Notes: generated from the letters alone by a model not told the origin. Shown: positions 51,556 through 52,264, numbered from the stretch's first letter. The stretch is DNA of 64,000 bases from Escherichia coli (GCF_003018255.1 NZ_CP027440.1), one strand, 5' to 3'. A program made the numbers and translations.

Positions 51556-51597
51556 TATTCTTCACTCCGAAGAAATAGGTAATTTAATCTAAATAAT

Positions 51598-51620
51598 GCC
51601 CGTCAAGGATTTGACGGGCA
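51598..51620 (+). terminator. stem-loop downstream of yaiT (gcccgtcaa-ggat-ttgacgggc)
   Basis: 9-bp perfect inverted repeat; weak T-tract, so terminator function is uncertain. Confidence 0.4.
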
Positions 51621-51640
51621 TTACTGCAAAGGACGCACAA

Positions 51641-52264
51641 ATGTTATCTGTAGTTAAACCTCTTCAGGAATTTGGTAAGCTCGATAAATGTTTGTCCAGA
51701 TACGGTACGCGCTTCGAGTTTAATAATGAAAAGCAAGTTATATTTTCCAGTGATGTCAATAGCGAAGATACTTTCGTTATTTTAGAGGGCGTTATCTCTC
51801 TGCGTAGAGAAGAAAACGTACTTATCGGTATTACCCAGGCTCCTTATATTATGGGGCTGGCTGATGGTTTAATGAAAAACGATATACCATACAAATTAAT
51901 ATCAGAAGGAAGCTGTGCGGGATATCATTTACCAGCCAAACAAACCATTACTCTTATTGAACAAAATCAACTCTGGCGAGACGCTTTTTACTGGTTAGCC
52001 TGGCAAAATAGAATTCTGGAATTACGCGACGTTCAGCTCATTGGGCATAATTCCTACGAACAAATCCGCGCGACGTTATTATCAATGATTGACTGGAATG
52101 AAGAATTGCGATCACGTATTGGTGTGATGAATTATATCCATCAACGTACACGTATATCGCGTTCTGTCGTTGCGGAAGTTCTCGCTGCTTTGCGTAAAGG
52201 CGGCTATATCGAAATGAATAAAGGCAAACTGGTCGCTATCAACCGTTTGCCTTCAGAGTATTAA
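51641..52264 (+). CDS. yaiV: Crp/Fnr-like putative transcriptional regulator (predicted cNMP-binding-like domain plus C-terminal HTH)
   Basis: ATG 51641 (MLSVVKPLQEF) follows AAGGA and lies after the yaiT hairpin; track ORF starts at 51596 inside the hairpin; C-terminal ...RISRSVVAEVLAALRKGGYIE resembles a Crp-family HTH. Confidence 0.75.
   Translation: MLSVVKPLQEFGKLDKCLSRYGTRFEFNNEKQVIFSSDVNSEDTFVILEGVISLRREENVLIGITQAPYIMGLADGLMKNDIPYKLISEGSCAGYHLPAKQTITLIEQNQLWRDAFYWLAWQNRILELRDVQLIGHNSYEQIRATLLSMIDWNEELRSRIGVMNYIHQRTRISRSVVAEVLAALRKGGYIEMNKGKLVAINRLPSEY

Follow-up and report, generated by a model that had tools for sequence, protein, structure and literature searches.

The longest open reading frame (ORF) downstream of the autotransporter gene ehaB in a 64,000-nucleotide stretch of the Escherichia coli chromosome (GCF_003018255.1, NZ_CP027440.1; hereafter, the window) runs from an ATG at 51596 to 52264 on the plus strand, encodes 222 amino acids according to both the ORF listing and the sequence, and corresponds to iprA (formerly, yaiV), known in Enterobacteriaceae as the 'inhibitor of hydrogen peroxide resistance' gene. 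The locus as a whole is, with high probability, best explained by a regulator of the CRP/FNR fold that is 207 amino acids long and is translated from the ATG at 51641, the stem-loop upstream of this codon being a structure of the leader or of the 3' end of the ehaB transcript. The initial annotation of the window had described the ORF 51596-52264, the ATG at 51641 behind an AAGGA motif, and a stem-loop, and all three are present in the sequence.

The 222-amino acid ORF matches the NCBIfam equivalog 'hydrogen peroxide resistance inhibitor IprA' (NF008810) with E = 4e-137 (454.5 bits against a cut-off of 359), and the 207 positions of the model (1-207) align end to end with residues 16-222 of the long ORF. 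In the RefSeq genome that is 100% identical over the stretch, iprA is annotated at the equivalent of 51641-52264; the K-12 gene, b0375 (394506-395129, NP_414909.2), also encodes 207 amino acids. The IprA protein of the window is 98-99% identical to the E. coli cluster representative, and the gene is single-copy in 5418 of the 5426 complete E. coli genomes. The gene order in the window, tauCD, hemB, ehaB (yaiT), iprA (yaiV), ampH, sbmA, is that of an E. coli chromosome segment, and iprA occupies the position of its orthologs: it follows the seaB/ehaB/yaiT autotransporter gene and converges with ampH. Public records contain exact matches to the 207-amino acid sequence on at least 1000 contigs under the IprA name, and exact matches to the 222-amino acid sequence on 76 GenBank contigs, where it is named 'transcriptional regulator'. 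The gene name, the 207-amino acid start and the family are already known and curated, and the CRP-like nature of the protein is hinted at in database names. The features around the start codon are as follows:

51641-52264, plus strand: iprA (yaiV) coding sequence, a real gene, 207 amino acids plus stop codon (RefSeq, K-12 b0375, NCBIfam, ATG conservation).
51629-51633, plus strand: Shine-Dalgarno sequence AAGGA for ATG 51641, at a spacing of 7 nucleotides; AAGGA, AGGA or GAGG is found at 6-7 nucleotides in essentially all loci.
51596-51640, plus strand: apparent non-coding leader that forms the 45-nucleotide in-frame 'extension' of the longest ORF; only 14 of the 35 hairpin-bearing loci have an open frame here, and there is no RefSeq feature in this stretch in E. 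coli.

For the comparison of start codons, we used a set of 68 species-level loci (Escherichia, Citrobacter, Salmonella, Raoultella, Trabulsiella, Yokenella, Enterobacter, Lelliottia, Leclercia, Pluralibacter, Franconibacter and others). The codon aligned to 51641 is ATG in 65 of the 67 species loci (GTG in Franconibacter), and database orthologs are called at 206-208 amino acids almost throughout. The ATG at 51596 lies within the 5' arm of the stem, with no purine-rich Shine-Dalgarno sequence upstream. Among the 35 hairpin-bearing loci, only 14 have this ATG in the iprA frame with no obstacle in between; in another 13, among them Salmonella and most Citrobacter, it is out of frame, at a distance of 43, 44, 46, 47, 49 or 52 nucleotides from the true start; in five, including E. 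albertii (where the protein is 93% identical, with a TAG at codon -4), it is followed by an in-frame stop; and in three, it is replaced by AAG or CAG. In the Enterobacter/Lelliottia/Leclercia clade, the hairpin is absent, and stop codons are present 1-13 codons upstream of the iprA start. The preference of the initial annotation for the 207-amino acid form is thus upheld by the curated annotations, by the retention of ATG 51641 and by the disruption of the upstream frame in 21 of the 35 loci.

The same annotation named conserved residues encoded upstream of 51641 in orthologs as an observation that would refute the shorter form, and in three genera such conservation seems, at first sight, to be present. 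The few long protein calls start with similar extensions, MPVKDLTGITAKDAQ in the window, MPVMDMTGINAREVC (73% identity) and MPVMQMAGIVVGLPD in Trabulsiella (52% identity), with a similar pattern (MPVxDxTGI) in the peptides MPVKDLTGI, MPVMDMTGI and MPVMQMAGI. The residues that are alike, however, are simply the translation of the hairpin (ATG CCC GTC AAG GAT TTG ACG GGC AT), so that the peptides resemble one another because the hairpin structure is conserved via compensatory changes. The 222-amino acid ORF itself arises because the palindrome ..AATGCCCGTCAA/TTGACGGGCATT.. contains an ATG that, in Escherichia, happens to be in frame without an intervening stop. Judging from this comparison, the 45 nucleotides upstream of ATG 51641 appear not to be coding.

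The intergenic region between ehaB and iprA contains two predicted RNA structures:

51594-51623, plus strand: hairpin 2, a conserved 13-base pair (bp) stem-loop that holds the spurious ATG 51596 (folding and covariation).
51558-51574, plus strand: hairpin 1, a small and weaker stem-loop, TTCTTC-ACTCC-GAAGAA, directly after the ehaB stop codon (folding).

The GC-rich core of hairpin 2, GCCCGTCAA-GGAT-TTGACGGGC, occupies 51598-51619, and flanking A-U pairs lengthen it to the full stem, TAATGCCCGTCAA GGAT TTGACGGGCATTA; the stem-loop initially placed at 51598-51620 is therefore real, with the end coordinate one base off and the stem longer, 13 bp at 51594-51623. The predicted folding free energy is -19.8 kcal/mol (z = -7.75), and none of 200 shuffled sequences folds as well. 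In the 35-sequence alignment, both partners are substituted in 7 of the 13 pairs, for example, from GTCAA/TTGAC to GTCAT/ATGAC or, in Yokenella, from GT/AC to AC/GT; 90.9% of the alignment cells are paired, compared to 31-49% in controls with the 3' arm offset by 1-3 columns, and the covariation score was reached in 0 of 500 shuffles. A 43-nucleotide stretch around hairpin 2 occurs only once per E. coli genome, and 5371 of 5382 E. coli records match it with an identity of at least 99%. A dispersed repeat similar to the repetitive extragenic palindromic (REP) elements was considered and ruled out by this single copy per E. coli genome. No RefSeq feature covers the stretch in E. coli genomes, and an Rfam scan of 51300-52500 (E <= 1) gave no family for hairpin 2.

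With a GC-rich, perfect stem that begins 38 nucleotides after the ehaB stop codon, hairpin 2 resembles intrinsic terminators, and the resemblance is supported by orthologs in which a U-run follows the hairpin (TTTTTT in locus L030, TTTT in L009 and L016) and by the terminators of the sister clade. Unlike such terminators, the E. coli hairpin has no U-run directly 3' of the stem, and its flanks pair, lengthening the stem; a promoter and terminator consensus scan of 51300-52500 found no terminator on the plus strand. At the site of hairpin 1, most genera (Citrobacter, Salmonella, Trabulsiella and others) have a hairpin that is unrelated in sequence; the Enterobacter clade has, at this position in the same intergenic space, a canonical, textbook terminator with a GC stem and a T-run, for example, GCGGGGGAGGATATCCCCCGC-TTTTTT. 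Hairpins 1 and 2 together would thus represent the 3' end or terminator structure of ehaB, probably, a leaky one in Escherichia, and hairpin 2 itself is probably either a weak terminator or an element that stabilizes a 3' or 5' end. In the Enterobacter/Lelliottia/Leclercia loci (L032-L060), we also observed a highly conserved block, GAACCGACARATACRGATGNCTTGAGGTCTGC, about 45 nucleotides before the iprA ATG, between the autotransporter terminator and the iprA start, in place of the hairpin of the Escherichia clade; this block could be a promoter, an operator or a leader.

IprA consists of two domains:

51698-51940, plus strand: N-terminal beta-roll domain that resembles cyclic nucleotide monophosphate (cNMP)-binding domains, approximately, residues 20-100 (secondary structure of the model, Foldseek, profile matches).
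52052-52255, plus strand: C-terminal winged helix-turn-helix (HTH) domain, Pfam HTH_46 (PF15977), residues 138-205 of the 207-amino acid form (E = 5e-31; 153-220 of the long form).

The HTH_46 match is unequivocal (E = 6e-31, 106.7 bits against a gathering threshold of 29.3), and the recognition helix, RISRSVVAEVLAALR, is nearly invariant among orthologs. With the single IprA sequence, the Pfam cNMP_binding domain stays below threshold (E = 0.045, 14.1 versus 27.5 bits). A search of a representative library retrieved 519 relatives at E <= 1e-3, and the profile of a 68-sequence alignment built from these matches the cNMP domains of cGMP-dependent kinases (E = 7e-9) and, over residues 26-197, CRP (E ~1e-3); 17 of the 68 relatives match Pfam cNMP_binding with their own sequence (E <= 0.01). 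The comparison with E. coli CRP using hhalign yielded a probability of 94% (E = 9e-8) over 178 columns that cover both domains, through residue 202. Weak, repetitive matches to phycobilisome linkers, which came from a PDB search with a shallow 22-sequence profile, were superseded by the cNMP and CRP matches obtained with the deeper profile and were treated as spurious.

The AlphaFold2 model of IprA (predicted local distance difference test score, 91.6; predicted template modeling (TM) score, 0.82) shows beta strands over residues 23-98, a long helix at 112-133, and HTH helices at 162-169 and 174-186, that is, the beta-roll, the long central helix of the putative dimer interface and the following HTH with its recognition helix that characterize the CRP/FNR superfamily. 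In a Foldseek search of the PDB, the model matches, along its full length, Vfr, CRP, the CRP of Mycobacterium tuberculosis, NtcA, CLP and GlxR, with TM scores of 0.63-0.74 at 13-18% identity; for the top matches, Vfr, CRP, NtcA and CLP, the TM score is 0.70-0.74 over about 205 columns. Thus the nucleotide-binding-like domain followed by an HTH, as initially proposed, is recovered by the HTH_46 match, the family profile, hhalign, and AlphaFold and Foldseek alike, and 'Crp/Fnr-like' is a correct description at the level of the fold, IprA being, as modeled, a divergent member of the CRP/FNR structural superfamily. IprA shares with CRP, Vfr, NtcA and CLP the three-part architecture and an arginine in the recognition helix that aligns with R180 of CRP; it differs from them in its low sequence identity and in a C-terminal domain that belongs to a separate Pfam family, HTH_46. 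The cAMP-contacting residues of CRP, E72, R82 and S83, align with G, D and I in IprA, in a remote alignment that is only indicative. The [4Fe-4S] center of FNR is held by the cysteines C20, C23 and C29 plus C122; the only cysteines of IprA are C17 and C92, of which only C92 is widely conserved. These differences indicate that IprA is probably neither a cAMP receptor nor an iron-sulfur sensor of the FNR type.

The following elements are predicted upstream of hairpin 2:

51561-51588, plus strand: predicted sigma-70 promoter of iprA, TTCACT-N16-TTTAAT (a literature prediction; N18 in K-12).
51569-51589, plus strand: predicted CyuR box, which overlaps the predicted iprA promoter (PMC11408624).

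The promoter TTCACT-18-TTTAAT is listed, together with H-NS binding, between yaiU and yaiV in a genomic SELEX (systematic evolution of ligands by exponential enrichment) study (Shimada 2014; PMC3946193). The CyuR box was predicted in a study in which cysteine induces yaiV 4.5 log2-fold (PMC11408624), and binding of FNR at yaiV has been reported in the absence of H-NS and StpA (PMC3688515). Transcription from the predicted promoter would start at about the first base of the stem, and hairpin 2 may also be the 5' end of the iprA mRNA. In the window, 2 bp are absent at 51567-51580 (AATAGG versus AATACTGG in K-12-type strains), inside both the predicted promoter spacer (16 versus 18 nucleotides) and the predicted CyuR box; the same deletion is found in locus L005 and in about 77 of 5420 E. 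coli records (those at least 99% identical over a 1-kb query).

The consensus scan of 51300-52500 found no promoter in the ehaB-iprA intergenic region. The sole promoter-like site from that scan, TTTACT-16-TAGAAT (51987-52014), is inside iprA, 17 nucleotides after an FNR-like site in the coding region, TTGAACAAAATCAA (51957-51970, one mismatch to TTGAT-N4-ATCAA), which might have to do with the FNR binding that others observed at yaiV in an hns/stpA mutant background (PMC3688515). A search with the FNR consensus found no site in the ehaB-iprA spacer, and an FNR site as an explanation of hairpin 2 was rejected, the only matches being those at 51503 (two mismatches, inside ehaB) and 51957 (inside iprA).

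The adjacent adhesin gene and the predicted elements upstream of it are as follows:

48607-51555, plus strand: ehaB (yaiT/seaB ortholog), an intact autotransporter adhesin gene, 982 amino acids (ORF listing and annotation).
48496-48525, plus strand: predicted ehaB promoter, TTGAAC-N18-CATAAT, an exact match in 58 loci.
48466-48479, no strand assigned: inverted repeat GTCCG-CAAT-CGGAC, a candidate operator; consensus GTCYG-N4-CGGAC in 58 loci.

The region upstream of ehaB (48440-48606) is strikingly conserved across genera. In the 58 loci, the inverted repeat is fixed at 16 nucleotides upstream of the ehaB -35 element, with conserved half-sites and a variable spacer, and the copy at 48466-48479 is the only exact match in the window. 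Its center is located approximately 59.5-61.5 nucleotides upstream of the predicted ehaB transcription start site, and a center near -60 is the classical class-I position of CRP/FNR-type activators. The repeat is thus a candidate operator for a CRP-type dimer, and we infer, purely from the sequence, that IprA could bind there. No palindrome of the ehaB type was found near the adhesin genes that lie beside distant IprA paralogs, beyond the positional ortholog in Rahnella; the paralogs may differ in specificity. The ehaB 5' leader contains a near-palindrome with GATC, GCATTGATAATTGATGGATCAAC, and a stem, GTCCCT-GAGG-AGGGAT (48587-48602), just before the ehaB ATG at 48607, which would sequester the Shine-Dalgarno sequence. 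The yaiU promoter has been tied to H-NS and SoxS (PMC10657408, PMC10268841).

In nearly all species loci, an autotransporter ORF of 918-992 amino acids ends shortly before iprA, and the pair is syntenic in all genera sampled; a 2026 paper places seaB invariably beside hemB, with iprA downstream (PMC13248724). The Rahnella homolog, 33% identical, also follows an autotransporter gene, with different flanking genes. We sampled 17 distant IprA/HTH_46 homologs with 25-35% identity, of which 5 are plasmid-borne and 12 come from genomic or metagenomic contigs; 12 of the 17 lie directly beside adhesin loci, namely, 3 autotransporters, 1 inverse autotransporter (intimin/invasin-type) and 8 chaperone-usher fimbrial operons. 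If, as we roughly estimate without a formal control, only a few percent of enterobacterial genes neighbor such loci, this would be a large enrichment. A literature search found no paper describing an association of HTH_46 with adhesin loci.

The adhesin-linked homologs are in loci L071, L077-L086, L090 and L091; in some of these, tandem copies are found at the 3' end of the fimbrial operon (L079, 5342-6660), and L086 has two copies next to two fimbrial operons. In Buttiauxella agrestis (L073/L074, 6001-10537), a 29%-identical IprA paralog is located between cysS and a gene for a phosphotransferase system enzyme IIC (PTS EIIC), two genes from ahpC-ahpF, which encode alkyl hydroperoxide reductase. 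This neighborhood is worth recording in view of the peroxide phenotype of iprA, but may be a coincidence.

In a 2016 study by Herman, an iprA knockout reportedly caused a multi-log increase in H2O2 resistance. Published work links IprA to resistance against peroxide and to the expression of fimbrial operons at other genomic locations (PMC6527747, PMC12502779), and deletion of iprA lowers the expression of fim, stb, stc, std and stf (PMC6527747, citing Herman 2016).

In the reading that we prefer, translation would start at ATG 51641, 7 nucleotides after AAGGA, and hairpin 2 with hairpin 1 would form the 3' end or a leaky terminator of the ehaB transcript. Expression of iprA would depend in part on read-through from ehaB; the rest would come from a weak promoter close upstream of hairpin 2 that is silenced by H-NS and responds to cysteine/CyuR. 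The protein would bind palindromic DNA as a dimer and would connect the adhesin locus with stress genes and with genes for other surface structures.

Several observations weigh against parts of this reading: the 222-amino acid form is deposited on 76 contigs and the extended frame is open in several genera, such that low-level use of the upstream ATG 51596 may occur; the one substitution within Escherichia in the 45-nucleotide stretch, from GCA to GCG, would leave the extended protein unchanged, although a single site carries no weight; and hairpin 2 of E. coli has no proper U-tract (its tail is AUUACUGC), with which termination efficiency could be low. That the 222-amino acid form, or both isoforms, are actually made, with translation from ATG 51596 and 15 functional N-terminal residues, nevertheless appears hardly credible. 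Apart from the deposited sequences, this explanation draws on the open frame and the similar predicted peptides in Escherichia, some Citrobacter, Intestinirhabdus and Trabulsiella, but the likeness of the peptides follows from a palindrome that varies by compensatory changes, the frame is broken in the majority of the hairpin-bearing loci, E. albertii and Salmonella included, and ATG 51596 lacks a Shine-Dalgarno sequence and is buried in the -19.8 kcal/mol stem. In addition, the curated models use 207 amino acids, and the N-terminus of the 207-amino acid form (..VKP..) aligns with that of CRP (..GKP..) within a few residues. A role of hairpin 2 mainly as a 5'-leader element of the iprA transcript, that is, a 5' stabilizer or a translational modulator rather than an ehaB terminator, is possible, if somewhat doubtful. 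It would fit the predicted promoter, which ends at 51588 and thus places the transcription start at about 51594-51596, at the first bases of the stem, as well as the distance of 43-47 nucleotides between the hairpin and the start codon in most loci, the position of the Shine-Dalgarno sequence about 5 nucleotides after the stem, and the poor U-tract in E. coli. However, this promoter is a sequence prediction inside a SELEX peak, a U-run follows the hairpin in some orthologs, and the Enterobacter clade has iprA without hairpin 2 and, instead, a classical terminator after the autotransporter gene. The terminator and leader roles are not mutually exclusive.

A palindrome could also act as double-stranded DNA, as an operator for IprA or another dimeric regulator, which, for hairpin 2, we consider very unlikely. 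The inverted repeat is perfect over 26-30 bp, its inner GTCAA-N4-TTGAC has the 5-N4-5 format of CRP/FNR sites, the outer GTC...GAC is common to it and the repeat at the ehaB promoter, and it would lie just downstream of the predicted -10 element, a typical repressor position. Yet the pairing is kept while the sequence is lost (ACCAT/ATGGT in Yokenella, ATCCA/TGGAT in Franconibacter), although the IprA recognition helix is nearly invariant in these two genera, and the palindrome is absent from the Enterobacter clade despite the presence of IprA; this combination points to selection on RNA structure. A further explanation is that IprA does not regulate ehaB locally and acts only on distant targets (RpoS/KatE-dependent peroxide resistance and fimbrial operons), the gene pair being inherited synteny; we take this to be a serious possibility, without favoring it. 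The published phenotypes are H2O2 resistance and effects on genes elsewhere (PMC6527747, PMC12502779, PMC11408624), and our literature search found no paper reporting an effect of IprA on yaiU, seaB or ehaB. On the other side are the retention of the pair in every genus sampled, even in Rahnella where the flanks differ, the adhesin loci next to 12 of the 17 distant homologs, and the conserved palindrome of 5-N4-5 format near position -60 of the ehaB promoter. The suggestion in the initial annotation that the gene may be a local regulator of ehaB/yaiT is made more plausible by the synteny, the adhesin context of the family and the palindrome at the ehaB promoter. More speculatively, and with only a modest chance of being correct in full, IprA/HTH_46 would be an undescribed class of CRP-fold regulators of adhesin loci, in which IprA binds GTCYG-N4-CGGAC at the ehaB/seaB promoter in the class-I activator position, and read-through of the hairpin creates a feedback module that couples the autotransporter, fimbrial genes and RpoS-dependent peroxide resistance.

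The gene is the same as iprA/yaiV of Salmonella Typhimurium and E. coli K-12 (Herman et al. 2016, J Bacteriol 198:2166), with 207 amino acids and the same location between an autotransporter gene and ampH. The differences from K-12, namely, the intact ehaB and the 2-bp deletion in the predicted promoter spacer and CyuR box, touch nothing essential. Because yaiT of K-12 is a pseudogene split by IS3 whereas ehaB of the window strain is intact, the results on iprA transcription in K-12 may not transfer to such strains. At the other end of the gene, the stop codons of iprA and the convergent ampH abut (TAA at 52262-52264; TGA at 52265-52267 on the minus strand), which leaves no intergenic space for terminators, so that the 3' ends of both transcripts must overlap. 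Like iprA, the genes of PapX, MrpJ and StdE/StdF lie beside an adhesin locus or at its 3' end; these regulators belong to adhesin operons, being encoded within them or at their end, and cross-regulate other surface structures, and the reported effect of iprA on other fimbrial operons fits this similarity. To our knowledge, the protein families of these regulators differ from that of IprA. StdE and StdF have been described as DNA-binding regulators encoded within the std operon (PMC6735912, PMC6173445).

These observations carry a practical warning. The start-codon ambiguity is real in the databases, where the 222-amino acid longest-ORF call circulates in GenBank and curators have resolved the matter toward the 207-amino acid form; a naive alignment of orthologs seems to back the longer call, and a conserved RNA hairpin can imitate the conservation of a peptide. 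The sole new element is the link to adhesins, formed by the HTH_46 relatives beside adhesin loci and the candidate operator at the ehaB promoter, and it is a lead rather than a result. Together, the relatives near adhesin loci and the palindrome at an activator position make the question of the targets of IprA directly testable.

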